A stretch of 64,000 nt of DNA from Cirrosporium novae-zelandiae (taxonomy: Eukaryota). The stretch spans positions 868,001 through 932,000 of the forward strand of contig JAPETS010000002.1 in NCBI GenBank assembly GCA_026023565.1, given 5' to 3'. Position 1 is the stretch's first letter, and the number at the start of each line of letters is the position of its first letter. Both the position numbers and the translations under genes were made by a program. Shown piece by piece: positions 27,737 to 44,946 of this stretch. Under the pieces are notes generated by a model. That model ran no database searches. It worked only from the letters and a program-made list of their open reading frames with translations, and had not been told where the DNA came from.

Positions 27737-28992
27737 ATGGCACATCCCTATAGGGAATTTGGTGAAAGCAGTAGGGGTAGTTTCAGTGGCTATACCTCTG
27801 AATCGTGGGTTATGTACCTTTTTCTCTTCACTCGTTTCTAACCCTTCTTAGACGCAAGAACATCTCTCTTCCAGCCAAGTTAACCCCTCATCTCTCTTTT
27901 GCATTATTCTCGCTAACTCCACTAGGATAAAATGCAAAAATTGCAAGAAGGTCAAACCCAATACCAGCTTCTCCAACAAACAGCTGAACGACTTGCGAAA
28001 CCACATCCACCGCTATGGCCAGATCTCAATTCATGAAACAATGGTCCGCTGCCGGAACTGCACTGGTGGTCAGACCGTTGAGCTTCAATGCAAATACTGC
28101 AATCTTTGGAAAGACTTGGAGCTCTTTGGCAAGGCACAGCGAAGAAATCCTGAGGATGCCGTAAGTATCCATCCCATCATTACACTATTGATCATACGGC
28201 TAACATATGGGTGGCACCATAGATATGCAAGCTGTGCAATGATAAGAACAAGATCCAGGACACTGAACCCGTCAAGGAAGATGAAGATGACTTTGGTAAC
28301 CTATCTGACACTGAAACCCTCCCAAGCAACATCTACGAGAGTTCTGAGTTGGTAAGTAGCACATCTGACATCCATAAATCCCCATATTAACTCTACGTTA
28401 TCCACATCTCTCATGAGATCTAGCTAATCAAACCCTCAGGACGCCTTGAGCGACGATGGTCTCAACAGCGTAGCTGGAAACTTGAACATCCATGACCACG
28501 CTCGCCCCAGTTCACCAGCCTCCTCAAGTGGCGGCGGAGTGGCTCTAGACAAAGGTAAGCAGAGGGCTAGAAACACCACTGTGTGGGTCGTCCAAAACCG
28601 CCCTGCCCACCAAGCTCCTACCACCAATAGGGGCCAGGCTTTTGCAAATGACTACAATTCTTCGCGCGACACCTCTCGCATCAATACCGTCAAGGCTTCA
28701 AGTGCCACAAACTCCTGGACTAAGTTCAGCTCTGCCAACTCCGCTGCATCCGGAACCACCAATGTTCCTCGTCCCAAAGTGACTGCCGCAGAGAAGCATG
28801 GCTTCGCGAAGGTCGGGGTGAGTACTGGCGATCAACAAATACTTGTGTGAATATTAACATCTCTAGGCATATCGGGATAGGGAGGCAGAGGCCACCTTGT
28901 TGGAAGATAGTTGCTCTGACAATGATGATACCGACGACGATGGTGACAGTGACGGTTCTGTTGACGAGAACAATCCAGCTCGCTACTACTAG
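27737..28992 (+). CDS. Stc1-domain zinc-binding protein, multi-exon
   Basis: Spliced LPAKIKCKNCKKVKPNTSFSNKQL..RCRNCTGGQTVELQCKYCNLWKDLELFGKAQRRNPEDAICKLC: four CxxC pairs with FSxxQL and FxKAQRR motifs; acidic tail. Confidence 0.82.
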
Positions 28993-31228
28993 ACTAGAGT
29001 TGGACGTATCACCCTCTACCCTACTTTTCTGTCAAGACACTCTAGCTTGTTTTAGTGGAACATTCTTGCTAGATGGATGGAATGGCGATTACCCTGAGAT
29101 GGAGATTTGTAGTAGTTAGGCCACTTACTTTAAGATACAGGTAATCCCTGTTAGGTGAATTAAGCAACCCTTTAAGAGAGACTCCTTGAAGAAAGTAAGT
29201 CAACGAGTAACTGTGCATTGAAGTCTAGACTTAGTATTTTTTCTCCTCTAGTACCACCACCTCTCAAGAAGAGCCACTTAATTATGCTGGACCATCAACC
29301 AAGCATCTACTAACTTGAACCAAGAAAACGTAGTGACAAAGAAGGCTCCCTTGATAACGGCAGCCCATGTGTTAACAAAGGAACTAAAGGGATTTTCATG
29401 TACCTGAATCCTGCACTGGGCGTTCGGCGATACTTACCATTCCAATGTTATGTAACCTAAATAGCGCCATTGACTGACTCATTTTATGGTCAAGCTGGTC
29501 AATAACTATGACGCTACAGACCAAGACCTTGACCCTGGAAATCTCTTAATCTCCATGTACTGTACTTCCATATCAGCTTTAACCTTAGAAGTATCGGTTA
29601 AATTCCTTGTCAAGGAGCTTTGCTACCTTGCTCCGAGCACCCATGTTGCAGTCCATAATAAGTAGAAACAGCCCCCTACAGCATGTCCCAACCCGGTATA
29701 TCTTCATTGTGCCAGCATAATCTTTGGCTTATGGAGTGCATCGTTATACATCTCTGGGTTGAACACATGCCATGATATACCACCATCTGCGCGTCTTCGT
29801 GGATATACAAGACTCAGTCCCATGTTCTAAGGTTTCGGCCTTGGTTAATCCTGTCGAGTCTGCATCATTTAGTAGCAGTACATTTTGGATGACAGCTGAG
29901 TGGAAATGGAAAAGTCACATATTCTCTGTCTGAAGTTCATGTTGGTCGGGAGTAGAAGGAGATGTGGTGTTAGGAATAGTTTTGACAGGTGTTAGTAAGG
30001 TCGCGACTAATCAGCCTTCCTATAGGTAGGTTGCATGCTGTTGAGTTAACGGTAGCTAATGGATCGACACGGACTAAGTATATAGACGGGAATGTTGTGC
30101 GACTAACTACCAAGTACCGTGTATGAAGATGCAGGATGTAAATAGAGATGATCTAAATAAAAACCTGATCGGCCAAGGGCGGTAGCAATAGGGGTGTTTG
30201 ATATGTAAGAATGTTCAAGGTGGAGATAGGAGATGAATGAGGGATTTCAAGGATAGATTTTCAACCTGGGACATTCTGCTCGTTTTTTTCCTGTTCCTAC
30301 TAAAAAATACCTAAATGTTTTCTCATGGGTTGATTAGATAAAGCAAGGCGTCAAATCTCCTGCCTAATTAGAAAGCTTTTACCCTGTAACAATGCAGCGT
30401 AGTGCAGTGCAGAACGGTGCAGAATGAGGGGGGCAAAGATGATGGCGCTAAAATATCCCAATTGGCAATCTGTTGATCATAATGGGAGGGAATGGAGGGA
30501 ATGGAGGGGCGAAAACCAATCGAAGGTTCTTCTAGAAAGTGGAAACCAACGATAAGATGATGGGTGGGAGGGGGGTTGACGTATGTGGGGTATTTTAAAG
30601 TATTTTTGGAAGTATTATTTGGTATCAATGCATCAAGATTATGCAGAAGAATTGTCATGGTAATTAATTTGGAGGGGCTCTTTGGCCATAAATCCCATAT
30701 CGTGTGTGTATCGCTTGTGGCTGAACCAGTAAAATAAAAAACAAGTCCGGTCCGGCATGACAGGTGCTTCTGACTGGCAGTAACAAGGACCGGATGACGA
30801 GACTCAGTTCGGACTGATGATGAGCCTTTCACTCACCTCACTCTCAGCCTGCAGCTACCCAAGATTTTTGAGCTTTTGCAACAAATTATCCTTCCGAAAC
30901 TGTTTCATCGACCCTGCCTACCACTAATATCCAATAGTTGGATAGTGAAATCCCCTACAGAAAATATTATCTATTGTCTATCCACTGTCACTGAACCGGA
31001 TTTCTTGCTCTGACGTACTCAGCCTTGCACACAAATTCGTTCCACCTCATCCTCTCAGGCCTTCATCGACTTCGAATCCTGAACCATCAACAACAACACC
31101 TAGGCAAATAATCTCATACTTAATTTTTCCTAGAACGCCGCCTGCAACAACTGGACTTGCTGCCTCTGGCAGCTCCCAGAACCCCCAAAGAAGGGAGTTG
31201 CTATCTACAAAATATTCTTCATCTGAAA

Positions 31229-33218
31229 ATGTCGCATGACGATTATCACCACCCTCTTTCGACAGAACAGGCCGACTTTTTCAACTCTAGCCATCTTGAC
31301 CCTCGAAATTCCTACTATCCTACAACTAATTCACATTATGATCCTGCAGGCAGACGGTCAAGAGCGTCATCCAACACTAGAAGTGAATACAATATCGATT
31401 CTTCTCGCTACCCCTCATCTCGTCAGCCCATTAATGAGGCTGTGACAAATGAATTCAATAAAACCGATGCACCCGGCTATGTATCGCCAGAGTTGATTAA
31501 TCAAATCACTGAAACTGTCATCAAGCAACTGACGTCTCTTGACGGCGCTGCACCCATCGCTCAGCCGCAGCCTATGGCAGCAGATCATCCAATCTACCCT
31601 CCCTCTACATCCGGATCTTCGCCCAAAATGCCTACACGTAATTATACTCCACCCTCTCCAAGGCCAAGGACAGAGGAGCGTGGCCGTCGTACCTCTCCAT
31701 CGGCTCAGAGTAAAGGGACTTCCACCCTTCATGTTCCCTCTGAATATACCCAATCATCCCAACCAGAAAGAAGAGGAGTTTCTCCAGCGAGGGGTCAGCC
31801 AGGTGATATCGGACAAAACTCAGTTCGACCAAAAGGCCCGCCTCGACTGTCAACAACCAATGATGCTACAACGCTGGAAAAGATTTGGGGTGCATTATTC
31901 GATCTTGATGGAAATGCAACCCCGAGGCTGGGACAGTTTTTGCGTGGACTTGCTGTTCATATAGTAAGTTAACTTTAACACTCACTTTCTGGATATATAC
32001 TAAACGTTTTCGAAGATTGAAGACTTTGAGCCCCGGCATAGTATCGTTGTTACACCCTCAAAGCTTCAAAAATATTACCAGCAGACAAGGCTATCATCCG
32101 AGCAATATCCTTGGCAGGGTCGGTATCACCTCATGTAAACTACAAAGAGATAAAAACTAACTTCCCTAGATGTTTTTGATGACCACTCTTCGAGCATCTC
32201 GAGGATGTTTCGTGAACTTGAATGCTCACATCATTTAATTCAGGAAAGGCCATCCGAAAGGCCAGACATCCCGGGCCTTACACCAGTTGGGTTCGAGCGA
32301 TGGGTGACCCTTTTGATACAAGCATATCCAGAACAAGAGTACGAAAGACTTACCAAGGCTGTATTAGATATGCCAATTAGCAACCCTGATGACAAAAAGG
32401 AGAGGTTTCCTAAAGAGATATCAAAACGATTATTTCCAACTGGGCCAGACCATGAGGTCAGAGCTCGGATTAAACATGCAATTGACGAACATGCAAATCT
32501 TGAGTCGATGACAACACCAATGCCAACCCCAACGCCTAAGCCCGCCCAACAAGAAACAAATTCTCATTACCATACAGACACCACAGTTCACTCACCGCCA
32601 GCCTCAAAGCGAATTCCTACTCCTCTCGAACGCGAGCGACAGCCATATTCCAACTCGCAACCCCCATCAGAACCATCCGAGGCTTCTCTGGAGGACAGTA
32701 ATATGTCTGCTAAGCCTATTGAACGGGAGAGAAAGCCATATGTTGGTAAAGAGGGAAGCGGTAAGATTTATGACAGCACTTTAAAGCCAGCCCCAACCGC
32801 CAAACACGCTCGGTCAAACTCCACAGCTACAAGAGCACGCCCTGTGGTTATTAATGAGACAAATCACCGGCATACTGGAAGTGCAAGTACCGCTTCAACA
32901 GGAGGAAGACGTCGTGTTCACAGCCCTCCACCTAGTTCTGATTATCGCCGGTCCGATGGTGACTTACTGTATGGGTCTACTTATCCAACTTCGTATGCTA
33001 CTGAGACTTCATTTGATGACCCATATACACGAGAAACTACAACGACATCTCGGAGACCTTATGATGAAGACCCACGCATCTACGATAGTCCGGCTCCATA
33101 TGACTACAGTGCACGGGGAGCCCTTTCAGGCGATGAAGACTATTATAGGAGTGCTGGAAGGGGCACTACCGGTAGTGGATATGATTACACACAGAACTAT
33201 CCTCCTAGATATTCCTAG
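31229..33218 (+). CDS. Pro/Ser-rich protein with central DUF7514-like domain, 3 exons
   Basis: WGALFD..GNATPRLGQFLRGLAVHI/IEDFEPRHSIVVTPSKL, ISRMFRELECSHHL, IPGLTPVGFERW; GT-AG introns near 31964-32016 and 32119-32169. Confidence 0.8.
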
Positions 33219-34457: not shown

Positions 34458-35900
34458 TTATGTATTCCGATGACGTAGCAGTTCTAGGATGTCGTCTTTG
34501 CTCCTTGCTTTCGCTTTCGCTTTCGCGTTCGGTGCCATCATAAACCGATCCGAGCTACTTTTTGTACTTCCACTTCGACAACCTTGATTTATATTTGTAT
34601 CTCGTTGGAGGAGGAGTTTGAAGGATGTGGAGGGTGGTGGTTGTGGTGGCGGGATGGATTTTTTTGGGAGGTCGGGATGGGGATGGGGGCAGTGTCGATG
34701 GTGATGATGATGTTTCCTTTGGTGTTTAGTTGTGGTGGATTGGTTTTTGGAGGGGGGAGCGGCGGGGGGTTGGTGTGGAGAGAGGGGGAGGGAGACTGAG
34801 GTGGAGGTGGAGGAGGGGTCGTTTGGTTTGCGGAGGGGTGGTGGAAGATGTGGGGGGTTGTTGATCGAGGTGGGATGATTGTGATTTATATGACTGTTAT
34901 TGCCATCATCATCATCGTTGGTTGTATACCGCTTTTCGTCTATCCACCTAACCCGTTTCTTCTCCAAGTGCTCATCCCCATCCCCATCCATCTTCCTCAG
35001 CTCCCCCCTCAACGCCCTCTCCACCTTCTCCTGTCCCTCCCACCTCCTCACCAGCCCATCCAGCGCATTAACCCTCTCATCTTCCAGAAACAACTTCTGT
35101 TCCCGCTCATACTCCTTCTGGCCTCTCTTACATCTCTGCTCTAGTACCCTCCTTCTTTTCTCTTCCCTCACCTTCTTTCGTCTGGCTTTTCTCGCCTGTT
35201 CCGATTGATCACCTGCGAATTTATCTCGCAGGCGATTCTGCTCCGCCTCGGAGAGAACCCAGGGGTGCGAGAGGACAGATTTGTAGAACTGCGTCTGCGA
35301 GCGCCAGGATGCAAGTTCCGAGGTTGTGGAGACGATGGGCGTGAGCCGTGCGAGAGCGATTTGGCGCGTGTGTCTGAAGACAGAGATTGTGCCCTTGGCT
35401 TTTATGAGGGTACCGGTTTCGAGTCCGGTGAGGGAGATTCCGTTTTCGGTTACGCTGGGGTTGGGGTTGATGGTGTTGGTGGGTTCTGGGAGGAGGATGT
35501 CGGTTGCAGGGTCGGGGGATGCGGGTGCAGGGAGGGGGGCTACGAGGTCAATTGTATAGCCGCTGAAATCGTCCAGGGTTAGGATTAGGCGGCGTGGGTA
35601 GAAGGTTATGGAGACTAGGAGGCCTTGGAGGCAGAAGTAGCGGATGGGGTAGTTGAGGTAGAAGTATGTGTTTTGGCCTGGATTTGGAGCAAGGTGTTAA
35701 TCAGATGAAAATTGGGGGGGGGGGGGTAGTGTATATATATTATATATGCCCATACCTTCAGATGCAGGTCTGGTCGTCAGCCTGTTGTGAACATCGTCGG
35801 CCGTCAACTTCACCCAGTGCGAATTATCGTATGTTGGTGCCGCTGGCCAGCAGTATGCTGGATAGAAAACCAGGCTCTTTTGGTCATCATGGTTGTTCAT
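34458..35900 (-). CDS. STN1: CST complex subunit Stn1 (telomere-capping OB-fold), 2 exons
   Basis: FYPAYCW.AAPT...WVKLTA.DVH; intron 35678-35755; then GQNTYFYLNYPIRYFCLQGLLV..RLILTLDDFSG, IKAKGTISVFRHTRQI, LSHPWVLS, open in frame into the 237-aa ORF. Confidence 0.82.
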
Positions 35901-39552: not shown

Positions 39553-40463
39553 TCACTCTGCACTTGGTTTCGGCCTTGAATCCATTTCTGAAACCACATG
39601 CGCTTCCAACTCTGGCATGGGCTGTGGCTGTGCTTTTGGTATGGCATTTGCGTTGTTTCCTGTTCCGTCCACATATCTACCTTGCATCAGGTACTGTTTT
39701 TCATTGTCGAGCTTCTTCGAAATCGCCAGCCGGTTCTTCCTCTCCCAGATTGCCCAGGCCAATGATGCTAGTGCGACTACGCCGAGGGGAACGCCAACAC
39801 CCACTCCTATAGCCGTTTCTTTGGATGAACTACTTCCACTGCTACTCGAGCTTGAAGATAGAGTGCTTGTTGCGGACGTGTCCGAAGAGCCTGAACTACT
39901 CGAGATGGTAGCGTTCGCGAGAGCTGCACGCCCTACTATAATAGATCCAACATCCAATTCAAATGCGCTTTCGCTGTTAGGGCAGACTAAACTGTTGCCA
40001 TCTTTAGATATCTCAGGCATACCACAGCACCAGGTTGATACTGTGGAGTTGCGGGAATGAGTTATAATAGGGATGCTGCCACTAGGATTGTCAGAACCTA
40101 TTTTAAAGTGACATGTCAGTCAAAATTTCCTTCATCTTTCATATAAAATGGTAGACGCGTAGGTTCTCACTTACTCCCATGACATATCTGTGTACAATTA
40201 CTTCCCCAACTCTGGTCTGTGCAGCTTCCTCTTGCGAGATGATTGTCAGTCAACTGGGTAAAACAGAGGCCATTAGTGAGACATGTAGCAGTCTCGCCAC
40301 AGCAAGATGTATACTGGTTGTCACTGCAAGGAACGTCGTTCTGGGAAACTTTGCCGTTGGGGTAATAACATGTTGCAGTTGAGGTGGCGGCAAACACAAT
40401 GCTGGGTAGAGAGAGGAGGGCGAAGGTGGAAATGGGTATTATGGGTATTAGTATTGATCGCAT
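39553..40463 (-). CDS. Single-pass cell-surface protein (signal peptide, Cys-rich ectodomain, Ser/Thr stalk, TM), 2 exons
   Basis: Signal peptide, CYYPNG..DVPC...SCC...ATCLTNGLC...RGSCTDQSW..C...C, GT-AG intron near 40099-40172, AIGVGVGVPLGVVALASLAWAIW TM followed by ERKNR. Confidence 0.85.
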
Positions 40464-41743
40464 TTGGAGTTATACATGTATTGTTCTCTCTGTAATTAAA
40501 GCTCAGAGTATAACAATTTGGAGGAGATAGGACATAATAACGAAGCGCGAGATGCATTCCCTTGAAGAGGAGTAGTAGTGGAAAGAATAGTTAAGCTACG
40601 GACTGATGAGGATGGATCATGGCTAGGATCATCCTCATTCTCTGTAATTTGCAAGGCAGAGTTGGTTTTTTCATGTATAGATTAAAGCTTACCCTAAGGA
40701 GCATGTAGACTCCGATAGAGGTATCATCTATCAGCTTAGTCGGAGATGGTTTGACGTTGGGATAGCGGAGGAGCTGGATGCTTGCTAATTCTGAGTTTAT
40801 AAATAATTACATGGCTCAAGACTTGGAGGCTTGGAGGGGAGGTTTGGAGCTCACAGTAGTTGGGTATGCCACTATCCGTATGATTGGTATTGATTTGTAT
40901 TCACTGACACTGTTTGCCCTGCATGGTCTCACGACGACATCCGGTTCCACCCGATTTGGCTAATTTTATTTATTAATCAAAACTCCAAGATATATATACA
41001 CACAACTTCTCGCTCTCCATTAGTTTGATTTAAATCTATGCATGTTAACCAGTACTATTCCATCTTTATTTTCAGTTGATTGTTTTGTTACGAGAATGCC
41101 TTGACGTTTCGCATGAATCATTTAGCACAAACCTACTTTGAAAGTAGGCGTATGGTAGATATGCCGACTTGAGGCCTATCTACCTACAGTAGGTAGTCTA
41201 AGGTTTGAGCTTAGGCAACCTATATAAGGCGGCATCCGTGATATTATTATTTTTTATCGATGTGTAGGGTAGTAGGGGAGTGGACGGCTACGTAGACGCT
41301 CTGATTCACAACATCTTATCTTATCTTAAACTTTCTTTTATCTAATCTAAGCAAAATCAAACATATAACCCTATCAAATATATATCTTTCCTTCCCTGAC
41401 AGTGTTTTCGTGGCATGGTTCACTGCCATAGAAATTTCTATAAACACCTTTTTTATTTCTTAAAACGTCAAATGTATGCGTGCATGCTCGGCCGTCTACG
41501 ATGTCTTCTCGGCTTTCAAAAATCTCGCAAAAATATTTCCATCTTAAATAATGATAACACCTTAACTTGATAACTATATCATAGATAGCAGGGACAGAAA
41601 AGTGCTCGGACAAAATGAGTTGCCTTGTAACTACTATTGTTGCTTCCTGACTGACCGTGCTTGAATCTTTCTGCTGTTTTCTGGATCACGTTCAAACCTT
41701 CTGAAGAAGTTTCAACAGCTCAGCGAATGGATCCATTCACAAT

Positions 41744-41840
41744 TCTAGCTGTGTTTAAAATCTGGCAGCTCCCTCCTCTAGTTGTGTTTGAAAACTGGCA
41801 ATTACCCCTCCAGTTGTATCTAAGATCCGACCACCCCCCC
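41744..41840. repeat. Three degenerate 32-33 bp direct repeats
   Basis: Copies start at 41744 (TCTAGCTGTGTTTAAAATCTGGCAG), 41777 (TCTAGTTGTGTTTGAAAACTGGCAA) and 41809 (TCCAGTTGTATCTAAGATCCGAC). Confidence 0.75.
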
Positions 41841-41996
41841 CTCCATTCTCTATAAATTTGCCTCCTTGCCCTGTACTTTTTCTCCTCATTCTCTACTTTT
41901 CTCCTCATCTTTTATCTTCACTCCCCATCCTCTACCTTTTCACCTTTTCTACTTCGTTACATTTGTCCAGCCTTTTATTTTACCCACATCACCAAA

Positions 41997-42515
41997 ATGG
42001 CTGGTCAAATAGTATATATGAATAATGTCGAGCGAGGGGATGTTCTATATCTTAGAAAACTGCAGGAGGTGGTACTTACCGGACACATCAGGGACTTGTT
42101 CTATGATTCGGGGATCGAGGACTTAGGAATGAACCACCCGTGTCTTATCGTTGACACGAACGCGGTGACGGGGATGGTTGATATTCTGATCCTGACATCG
42201 TTTGGGGGTTGTGGTATCGAGACGGGTTGGCAATCTAGGGCCAAGTATCTCGTTCCTACCGTGGGTAGCAAGCTCCACAAACCATTCTCCCAGCACATTC
42301 AATACCAACCAACAAAGCTGGGATGGAGGCCAGGATACTTGCAAATCGATCGAATGTACAGAGTCCGCAGAGAATTACTTCGCCATTATGACGCCAACAA
42401 CGCACATGAGCGCTTTAGTCTCACGGAAGCGTCATTCGAGTTCGTCCAAAGGCTCGTGGAGAAACGCGGACTCCAGATCGAGAAACCAAGGTCAACCAAA
42501 GCAAATTCCATCTAG
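41997..42515 (+). CDS. Hypothetical protein with MazF/PemK-like motif pattern
   Basis: Intronless 172-aa ORF with CACCAAAATGG start context, TATAAA at 41851-41856 and a CT-rich leader; motifs VERGDVLYL, HPCLIVD, ILILTS, GYLQIDRMYRV, SLTEASFEFV. Confidence 0.65.
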   Translation: MAGQIVYMNNVERGDVLYLRKLQEVVLTGHIRDLFYDSGIEDLGMNHPCLIVDTNAVTGMVDILILTSFGGCGIETGWQSRAKYLVPTVGSKLHKPFSQHIQYQPTKLGWRPGYLQIDRMYRVRRELLRHYDANNAHERFSLTEASFEFVQRLVEKRGLQIEKPRSTKANSI

Positions 42516-43038
42516 ATAGATTTCATCTAGATAGGAAGGCCTCCTACTGGTTCAACGAAAGCATCGGCCCCCTTACCACCTCGTCGCCCTACCTGCCATT
42601 TCTCCTCAATGTCGTACCCTTCACACGCCCTGCCCTTATTCCCAATATTCTCATGGGAGCCCATTTCAATACCCTCAGTACCCTCCTCGACCTCACCAAT
42701 ACAGTGCACACCAATATCCAGATGGCGGATATTACCAAATTCCCGTGCCACTCAACAACTTATACAGCCGTCAACCTTACTATTAGCGCCCAGCGACCTG
42801 GGCATATTTTTTTCGGCTCATCTCTATACCCTCCGGAGCCGAACTACAAACTTTTGGTTGCATGTCTACATAAAAACCAAGTGACTTTTAGGAGATCGTG
42901 GAGTTTTGGATTTGAATATTTTCGCAAAGGAGTTAATGTTTAGGCCTAATGGAATGGCCACTACTGTATATAATTATCGCTGCTTTAGCTGCATATGATA
43001 ACTGTTAGGGGGGTTTCTTGCTAGATTTTTCCTTATGA

Positions 43039-43181
43039 ATGAAAAAACAATGATGATGATAATTCATTGTTCTATGTCTGCATGTTACTTAAGAGCTATG
43101 ACGGACAAAATGAAAAAAACAATGATGATGATAATTCATTGTTTTATGTCGGCATGTTGCTCAAGAGCTATGACGGACAAA
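43039..43181. repeat. Tandem duplication, about 71 bp x2
   Basis: ATGAAAAAACAATGATGATGATAATTCATTGTT..AAGAGCTATGACGGACAAA at 43039 and 43110, about 4 substitutions plus one indel. Confidence 0.9.
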
Positions 43182-43414
43182 AAAAATATTAAAATACAAC
43201 TCAATGTGCCAGATTTTTAAATTGTACCGCTTATGATGCTCCTCACCACTCTAAGAATATAGTAGCTGCGACACCATGAGGACTAAGGTAGTATTAATCA
43301 TCAAATTCATTTTCGTAGAGAAAGAAGGGTGTTGAAAGAGCTGGTAGGGCTATTTTGGCCCCGCTGATAGGGCGAAATGCCAAGCTCCGGGGTAAAACGG
43401 GCCACCGCGCCAGC

Positions 43415-43430
43415 ACGCGTCAACACGCGT
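43415..43430. promoter_or_regulatory. Tandem MCB elements upstream of the kinetochore gene
   Basis: ACGCGT at 43415-43420 and 43425-43430, about 165 bp before the ATG. Confidence 0.6.
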
Positions 43431-43590
43431 CAACAACTTATAGAGTGCGATACACCATCTTGCACGAACCTACTTGAAATCACTCTACACAGTACCAACA
43501 GATATGGTAGGCTCAGCCATGTGATTGGATTATTGTGTAGGTATTTTGCAGAAAAAAGCTAACTAACTCAACTAGGCAAAGGCCAAGCGC

Positions 43591-44946
43591 ATGAGTTTCG
43601 CTCGCAAAAAGCAACGGAAACCCATTGTCGTCCCGTCGCCTCCCGAACCGGGGGAAGAAGATGGGTCGCCACAGGTTGAAGATTTGACGGAAGAGGAGAA
43701 CAGAGAACAAGAAGACAGCCAGGAGTCTCTAGAAGTAGAAGCCCAAGAGGAGGAGGGTGACGAAGAAGACCTAGACCCTTCACGAGAACCCACCAGGACC
43801 TCCAAAAAGCGCCGGCGGGAAGAACCCTCACCCGGGGATAACGACGATGAATATTCCTCTAATGATCCAGAAGAAGAACAAGAACCTCCACGCAAAAAAC
43901 CATATGCCTCTCTCGTCCCCCGCACTCGCTACGTAACCAAAGACATTATCTCTCGAAAATGGAAGGCCCTGTCAGAGCCAGCGTGCCAGAAGATCGGCGA
44001 GGTCTTTAAGCTGGCGGCTAGACCAGTGGTGATTGGCATGAGGGATGAGAAGAGGAGAGCCGAGGCTCAAACGGTAGTTGGGATGATGGAAAAGAGGTGA
44101 GTTCTTTGCCATACTATACTGTATACCAACGGGAGAGAAATCGAATTCGACGCTGATATAGGTGGGGGGTTCCATATAGGTTAAGGAAGAAATTACCACG
44201 AATGCCATTCCCGCCTACGACGAAAGATGACCATTTTAGCTACGAGGCTATTCTGAATGCGAATGTAGGACCAACCCTACGCCTTTCCTCCCATGGATAT
44301 CCATATTCCAAATCCATAGCTACATATGTACACTCATAACTAACTGTACCTCTTTCTTTCTGTCAGCATTCCCTAGAAAGCCAGCTCACCCCTGCGATCC
44401 ACTCAATCGCTCTCCTCCACGCTGAAATCGAGAAAGAGAAACGAGCGCTGGAGGCCGACCGAGCGGTTCTTTTAACCTTAAAACAGAATGCGAAACGCGA
44501 GGAGGCGGCAAGGAGGAAACAAAAAGGGGTAAGTTTCATCTTCTTCATCTCTCTCTCATACACCCCCCTCCCCCTCCCCCTGTCCCAAACACCCCAAAAG
44601 ACGAACAAAACAAGACTAACCCCCTGAACAGAAACATCCCCTCCTCCAAAAAATGGAGCTCGAATACCCTCCTCCCACTTCCCCCTCACAACCAAAACTA
44701 AATTTCAACCTTGATGAAACCTCCCCACTACCTCTATCCTTTCTCGATGATGATCCTAAAACCATGGACCCGGCACTCGCACCCCTGGTACAGCAACTCC
44801 AGGGCCATTTGCACAGCTTGAAGAATAACATGGCGCAGGTTGCGGGGGTGGGGGATGCGATGAGGAGGACGAGGGCGGCGGTTGAGGAGGTGCTTTGGAG
44901 GGGGTTGGATGGGGGGAGGTATGCTAAGGTTTTGGGTGGGGAATAG
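43591..44946 (+). CDS. Kinetochore protein CENP-Q/Okp1/Fta7, 4 exons
   Basis: PYASLVPRTRYV..II.RKWKAL, LRKKLPRMPFPP..KDDHFSYE, LESQLTPAIHSIALL.AEIEKE coiled coil, HPLL, LQGHLHSL..N; introns 44097-44180, 44265-44367, 44529-44631. Confidence 0.82.

Follow-up and report, generated by a model that had tools for sequence, protein, structure and literature searches.

A coding ORF with MazF-like motifs

An ORF of 172 codons (P0001; positions 41997–42515, forward strand) in the 64000 nt stretch of the Cirrosporium novae-zelandiae genome analysed here (the window) raises the question of whether a fungus carries a native protein of the MazF/PemK toxin type and, if so, whether that protein is an RNase. 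C. novae-zelandiae is an ascomycete, placed in the Xylobotryomycetes (PMC6712537). The preliminary description of the locus had listed motifs in the order seen in MazF, preceded by a TATA box, a CT leader and a strong start, and all of these were found. Every quoted motif is present in the ORF, a TATA-like box of putative function (TATAAA; 41851–41856, forward strand) lies 146 nt before the ATG, the leader at 41861–41990 on the same strand is pyrimidine-rich (83% C+T), and the bases at -3 and +4 of the start context are A and G, respectively. The MazF-like motif pattern was found in 1 of 200000 shuffles of the window protein, but this overstates its significance because the pattern was written after the protein had been inspected.

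The domain is not interrupted by an intron, and a 3-periodic coding model trained on 16 long ORFs within the window gave +1.4 bits per 100 nt for the ORF's own frame and -8.2 and -5.5 for the other two forward frames (background of 205 non-training windows: median -8.7, 90th percentile -2.1). Contigs of DNA run X1, which is possibly the source of the same assembly, differ by no letter over the ORF, and the locus is single-copy in the genome at the DNA level. The N-terminus of NCBI protein M1834_002962 (P0002) is 99% identical to the window protein over 97% of the latter's length. The gene at 41997–42515 is real.

Relatives in ascomycete genomes

The gene had been described as an orphan; five relatives were detected by sequence and profile search, and the label does not stand. 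A phmmer search of 1.84 billion representatives returned four matches at E 0.001, namely the NCBI model of the window gene, a paralogue in the same genome (P0003), and proteins of Ptychographa xylographoides (P0004) and Circinaria calcarea (P0005). A four-sequence profile then brought in a JGI protein (P0008) and a protein of Trapelia coarctata (P0009) among 3599 candidates. The three named species are ones we take to be lichen-forming Lecanoromycetes. The domains of the relatives are 25–28% identical to the window protein in the six-member domain alignment. As the nearest ESM Atlas cluster (score 0.94) has 50 members, 98% of them eukaryotic and mostly ascomycete, the family is probably wider than six; a word-based search for relatives of similar length confirmed none of 31 candidates.

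The paralogue P0003 (contig C59, about 280.9–282.0 kb; L002, 1139–2208) has a MazF-like domain, followed by a linker rich in Thr, Pro and Gln and by a C-terminal membrane helix rich in Val. It contains a canonical intron of 65 nt, absent from the window copy, located two codons before the Thr of a Met-Thr-Ser-Phe motif, and the family is therefore native to eukaryotes and not a contaminant. P0003 is more likely than the window copy to represent the intact form of the family in C. novae-zelandiae. A third contig (C37, about 534020–534310; L015, 1430–1720) was found to hold a frameshifted, truncated copy of P0003 that takes in the end of the intron and exon 2 but no visible first exon, and that gives way to unrelated open frames.

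No relative was confirmed in viral, metagenome or prokaryote genome contigs or in phages using short-pattern scans, which are insensitive to distant or intron-split genes, and the family profile, run with no positive control, matched none of the genomes in two phylum samples of prokaryotes (0 of 401 in each). A bacterial donor was not found in the prokaryote contig scan or in these two profile scans.

Predicted fold

A domain with a predicted MazF/PemK fold covers residues about 9–160 (42021–42476, forward strand). AlphaFold2 run on the six-sequence domain alignment gave a model with pLDDT 78.5 and pTM 0.78 (range of pLDDT over five models 75.9–78.5); a single-sequence fold of the window protein was useless (pLDDT 31.7). 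In the model, an SH3-like barrel with a C-terminal helix spans the whole domain, as in the MazF/PemK/CcdB structural superfamily. When the model was compared with 48161 PDB representatives using VIA-align, ranks 1–12 were all PemK, MazF, Kid, CptN, CcdB or TA toxin chains (Z 9.4–7.2), the best being 7ewi_C (Z 9.4, rmsd 2.7, 103 residues aligned), and the first unrelated chain scored Z 5.7, with ToxN and AbiQ at Z 5.0–5.5. The best 30 rows of a Foldseek search of the PDB were all from the MazF/PemK/CptN superfamily (best E 1.2e-3, none at E 0.001), the best 50 rows of a second structural search were all MazF, PemK, Kid or CcdB (Z 8.3–9.8), and the best match in the viral library BFVD was PemK-like (E 4.5e-4). 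Identity in the structural matches is mostly 10–23%, and these structural searches all use the same model and are not independent of one another. The MazF/PemK fold suggested in the preliminary description is nevertheless what the model and these searches returned, with the barrel of MazF, PemK, Kid, CcdB and CptN at the top ranks.

Evidence that does not use the model points the same way. A PemK cluster was reached at 0.92 by language-model features, and the MazF-like family phrog_1936 was matched by three of the six members (best E 0.011). An hhalign comparison of the family profile with MazF gave a probability of 68% (E 4.8e-5, score 33.7), 60 column-shuffled profiles reaching at most 19.95, and a second, overlapping MazF set gave 83%, though the sequence-profile match spans only 27–37 columns. 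The Pfam model for PemK-type toxins, PF02452, was reached below threshold by P0004 and P0008 (E 0.013 and 0.17; best relative 16.2 bits); its cut-off of 23.1 bits was reached by neither P0001 nor its relatives, and no PF02452 match was found in the genome. P0001 had no match in Pfam and nothing relevant in NCBIfam, and PDB sequence searches with the family profile returned noise or nothing. A homodimer prediction run without using the alignment scored 0.01 and spoke neither for nor against a dimer. We consider the predicted MazF fold of the window protein well supported.

A histidine at the position of the catalytic arginine

The preliminary description had also proposed, from an alignment by eye, that the catalytic Thr of MazF is kept and the Arg replaced by His, and this was upheld by profile alignments, the register coming from these and not from residue-level superposition. 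His47-Pro48 (42135–42140, forward strand) is in register with Arg29-Pro30 of Escherichia coli MazF, and Thr67 (42195–42197, forward strand) with Thr52. Both are invariant in all six members, each of which has His in place of the Arg, and the domain alignment has 14 invariant columns in total (His47, Pro48, Thr67, Lys21, Gly113, Tyr114, Arg129, Tyr131 and six others). The Arg is kept in 79 of 80 close relatives of E. coli MazF, a set pre-filtered for an Arg/His-Pro motif and so not a sample of the whole family.

Histidine is a standard acid/base in RNases, and the invariant His at this position would be explained more readily by a rewiring of the catalytic site than by decay. According to the sections of the relevant reports drawn on here, the MazF Arg acts as dual acid/base and the Thr stabilises the transition state (PMC8887465, PMC11394972, PMC10893535). 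ToxN is described as requiring Lys33, Thr52 and Lys55 (PMC8860590, in part), and the MazF fold thus appears to tolerate other catalytic residues. However, the RNase reading is weakened by the loss of cleavage on changing Arg to Ala in one MazF homologue (PMC10893535, in part) and by the retention of Arg among the pre-filtered relatives, and further by the same fold in the non-nuclease CcdB (Z 7.8), by the lack of a Foldseek PDB match at E 0.001 and by the short profile match of 27–37 columns.

The alternative that survives best, though we consider it unlikely, is that the domain is non-catalytic and serves as a membrane-tethered adaptor for RNA or a protein partner, in which case His-Pro and Thr would be conserved for structural or binding reasons. 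The canonical Arg is missing from all six members, no antitoxin was found at the locus, and CcdB, which shares the fold, is reported in PMC5086642 (in part) to be no nuclease and to bind gyrase. However, the polar residues conserved without exception fall exactly at the two catalytic positions of MazF, and the sequence-level matches are to PemK/MazF models and none to CcdB.

The C-terminal end of the protein

In the relatives, the domain is followed by a low-complexity linker, and P0003, P0004 and P0008 then have a hydrophobic C-terminal helix (19-residue means of 2.9, 2.5 and 2.6, respectively) and no signal peptide evident by eye. Judged by sequence, these three are organised like tail-anchored proteins whose domain faces the cytosol. 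A transmembrane tail is absent from P0009 and from P0005, the latter marked partial, and its absence from two of the five relatives weakens a tail-anchored reading of the family. A dileucine sorting motif was considered for the tails and rejected, being clear in only one of the three anchored relatives.

The window copy ends 15 residues past the last helix (residue 157), at a TAG within a 15 nt tandem duplication (42505–42519 and 42520–42534, forward strand) that carries one in-frame TAG per copy. The duplication lies inside a 44 nt intron implied by the NCBI model (42491–42534, forward strand), which has a weak donor and no clear branch site. If this intron is spliced, the product would reach 300 aa by way of a possible 3′ tail read in the -1 frame (42535–42943, forward strand; frame open over 42419–42943). 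The ORF's own frame is open beyond both TAGs to 42884, and the match to P0005 continues in this frame through both, possibly for compositional reasons; the coding model found the -1 frame tail more coding-like than the own-frame continuation. No clear transmembrane helix was found in either tail, and the 3′ end of the window copy is uncertain. With its domain free of introns and no anchor clearly present, the window copy looks like a derived, soluble paralogue.

The same features could indicate that, within a functional family, the window copy arose by duplication, possibly through retroposition, and is now unused and decaying, a premature stop or frameshift having truncated it and removed its tail. 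The missing intron, the two in-frame TAGs followed by long open frames, the P0005 match across them (possibly compositional) and the presence of the frameshifted paralogue fragment elsewhere in the genome are in keeping with such decay. However, no part of the domain is missing up to and including the last helix, every invariant residue is retained at less than 30% identity to the paralogue, and promoter-like features and a coding signal are present, making decay improbable.

Gene neighbourhood and the CENP-Q gene model

An acyltransferase-3 gene and a membrane-protein gene are located upstream of the MazF-like gene, and genes for CENP-Q and a xanthine/uracil permease downstream. These are housekeeping neighbours, and nothing at the locus picks out antiviral defence, incompatibility or drive. 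A divergent gene 1.5 kb away (39553–40463, reverse strand) appears to have two exons and encodes a Cys-rich N-terminus, a Ser/Thr stalk and a membrane helix, with a weak SKG6 match. Further away are an Stc1-domain ORF 13.6 kb upstream (27852–28352, forward strand; PF12898, E 6e-22), from a family linked to RNAi-directed heterochromatin and probably unrelated, a DUF7514 gene (31124–33215, forward strand) and a weak match to the telomere protein Stn1 (34461–35696, reverse strand).

The preliminary description had seen no recognisable antitoxin gene next to the ORF, and this was confirmed. A search for a MazE/PemI-like antitoxin found no ORF of at least 80 aa between 40464 and 41996, where ORFs of 40–78 aa were inspected by eye and intron-split candidates are possible, and no Rfam match at E 0.1 was found in 40400–43700. 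A type III-like RNA antitoxin was rejected, as there is no upstream tandem repeat and the only long one is downstream and dispersed genome-wide. It consists of two tandem 72 nt copies (43042–43185, forward strand) between the MazF-like gene and CENP-Q, with a core of about 58 bp for which the genome, this locus included, gave 31 matches (77–100% identity), and is possibly the remnant of a transposon end.

That the protein is the toxin half of a fungal toxin-antidote system, acting in meiotic drive or heterokaryon incompatibility with an antidote that is unrecognised or unlinked, would suit a toxin-derived fold and a family of few, fast-diverging members with duplicate and pseudogene copies in one genome, but the housekeeping neighbours, the single-copy locus (at the DNA level), and the lack of a partner ORF of at least 80 aa in 40464–41996 or of an RNA family nearby make it very unlikely.

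The deposited NCBI model (M1834_002962, 587 aa) joins the MazF-like gene to CENP-Q via an intron of ~870 nt, implying a kinetochore fusion protein. The CENP-Q gene (43504–44946, forward strand; PF13094, E 2e-40) has its own ATG at 43504–43506, apparently as a lone-ATG first exon, followed by a canonical 69 nt first intron (43507–43575). A genuine fusion is scarcely credible, as the ~870 nt intron has a weak donor and spans the dispersed repeat, its acceptor is served by the canonical donor 69 nt upstream after an in-frame ATG, and a fusion-length search (proteins of 302–2000 aa) returned only M1834_002962 among 431 candidates. The NCBI fusion is thus probably wrong, with CENP-Q a separate gene, and the correction would mean that CENP-Q of C. 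novae-zelandiae is probably not a fusion protein.

A proposed role and its implications

Our preferred reading, held tentatively and at somewhat less than even chances, is that the gene belongs to a fungal, often tail-anchored family of MazF-fold endoribonucleases that use His as acid/base. The window protein would be a metal-independent endonuclease for single-stranded RNA, in which His47 would take the general acid/base role of the MazF Arg and Thr67 would stabilise the transition state, with cleavage leaving 2′,3′-cyclic phosphate ends. In the typical family form, the low-complexity linker and C-terminal transmembrane helix would hold the domain at a membrane, on the cytosolic side. Such a tether could confine its action to membrane-associated RNA and so do the work of the antitoxin that is missing. 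RNA-level defence or regulated growth arrest would be the likely role.

A broader scenario, which we regard as doubtful, is that the bacterial MazF barrel was domesticated in ascomycetes and gave rise there to antitoxin-free, membrane-tethered, sequence-specific RNase families (His/Thr, and possibly the Arg/Thr DUF6590) for antiviral defence or programmed cell death. If true, a toxin from a toxin-antitoxin system, its active site rewired, would have become an immune effector in a eukaryote.

The literature found regards MazF-type RNases as prokaryotic, and a full-text search, judged by titles and the starts of abstracts, turned up no description of fungal proteins with the MazF/PemK fold among the papers listed. 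The link to fungi may already be present in large structure-clustering studies or in automated superfamily labels; what appears to be new is the His-type variant with a membrane-anchored family architecture. A family of this fold that is native to fungi, has one catalytic residue altered and bears an anchor would extend the bacterial conflict domains recruited by eukaryotes, and offers a natural His-for-Arg active site that is directly testable.

Comparison with known systems

The closest resemblance is to MazF/PemK/Kid (PF02452; E. coli MazF, Staphylococcus aureus PemK 7ewi and Bacillus subtilis MazF 4me7), with which the family shares its predicted fold along the full length of the domain (Z up to 9.8, rmsd 2.2–3.6, about 100 residues aligned), the motif order, and Pro and Thr at the catalytic loop positions. 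Unlike these toxins, the fungal proteins carry His in place of the catalytic Arg, are longer by about 40 residues (about 150 versus 110 aa), have a C-terminal linker and transmembrane helix in three of five relatives and no MazE-like partner, are encoded by a fungal gene with an intron in the paralogue, and fall below the Pfam cut-off. The window protein may work like MazF but is not a member of PF02452, as it has neither the Arg, the antitoxin nor a score reaching the profile cut-off.

The type III toxins CptN, ToxN and AbiQ have the same core with insertions, a similar size and a Thr/Ser near the active site, and CptN was the first Foldseek PDB match (126 residues aligned, Z 8.1, rmsd 3.9). 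However, no tandem-repeat RNA antitoxin was seen upstream of the fungal gene, and ToxN and AbiQ score lower (Z 5.0–5.5). The gyrase poison CcdB resembles the predicted fold (Z 7.8–8.5) but shares only 7–10% identity and gave no sequence-level match, and the fungal family, unlike CcdB, keeps residues at the RNase positions.

DUF6590 (PF20233), an ascomycete domain of unknown function, is a neighbour of the window protein by language-model features, and has Arg and Thr, by eye, at equivalent positions and in the order of the MazF catalytic residues. In the genome, nine exon-level DUF6590 matches were found at about six loci (contigs C41, C46 and C78; L003–L011), three of them clustered at 304–316 kb of C41 and one (L005) with an internal stop. 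The window protein, in contrast, has no PF20233 match and its locus is not among the nine; profile comparison with the in-genome fragments did not reach significance (E 0.11 and 0.56), and a search of PDB sequences with one DUF6590 copy gave no match. DUF6590 is nonetheless a candidate for a second fungal MazF-fold family, and the family described here may suggest a function for it.
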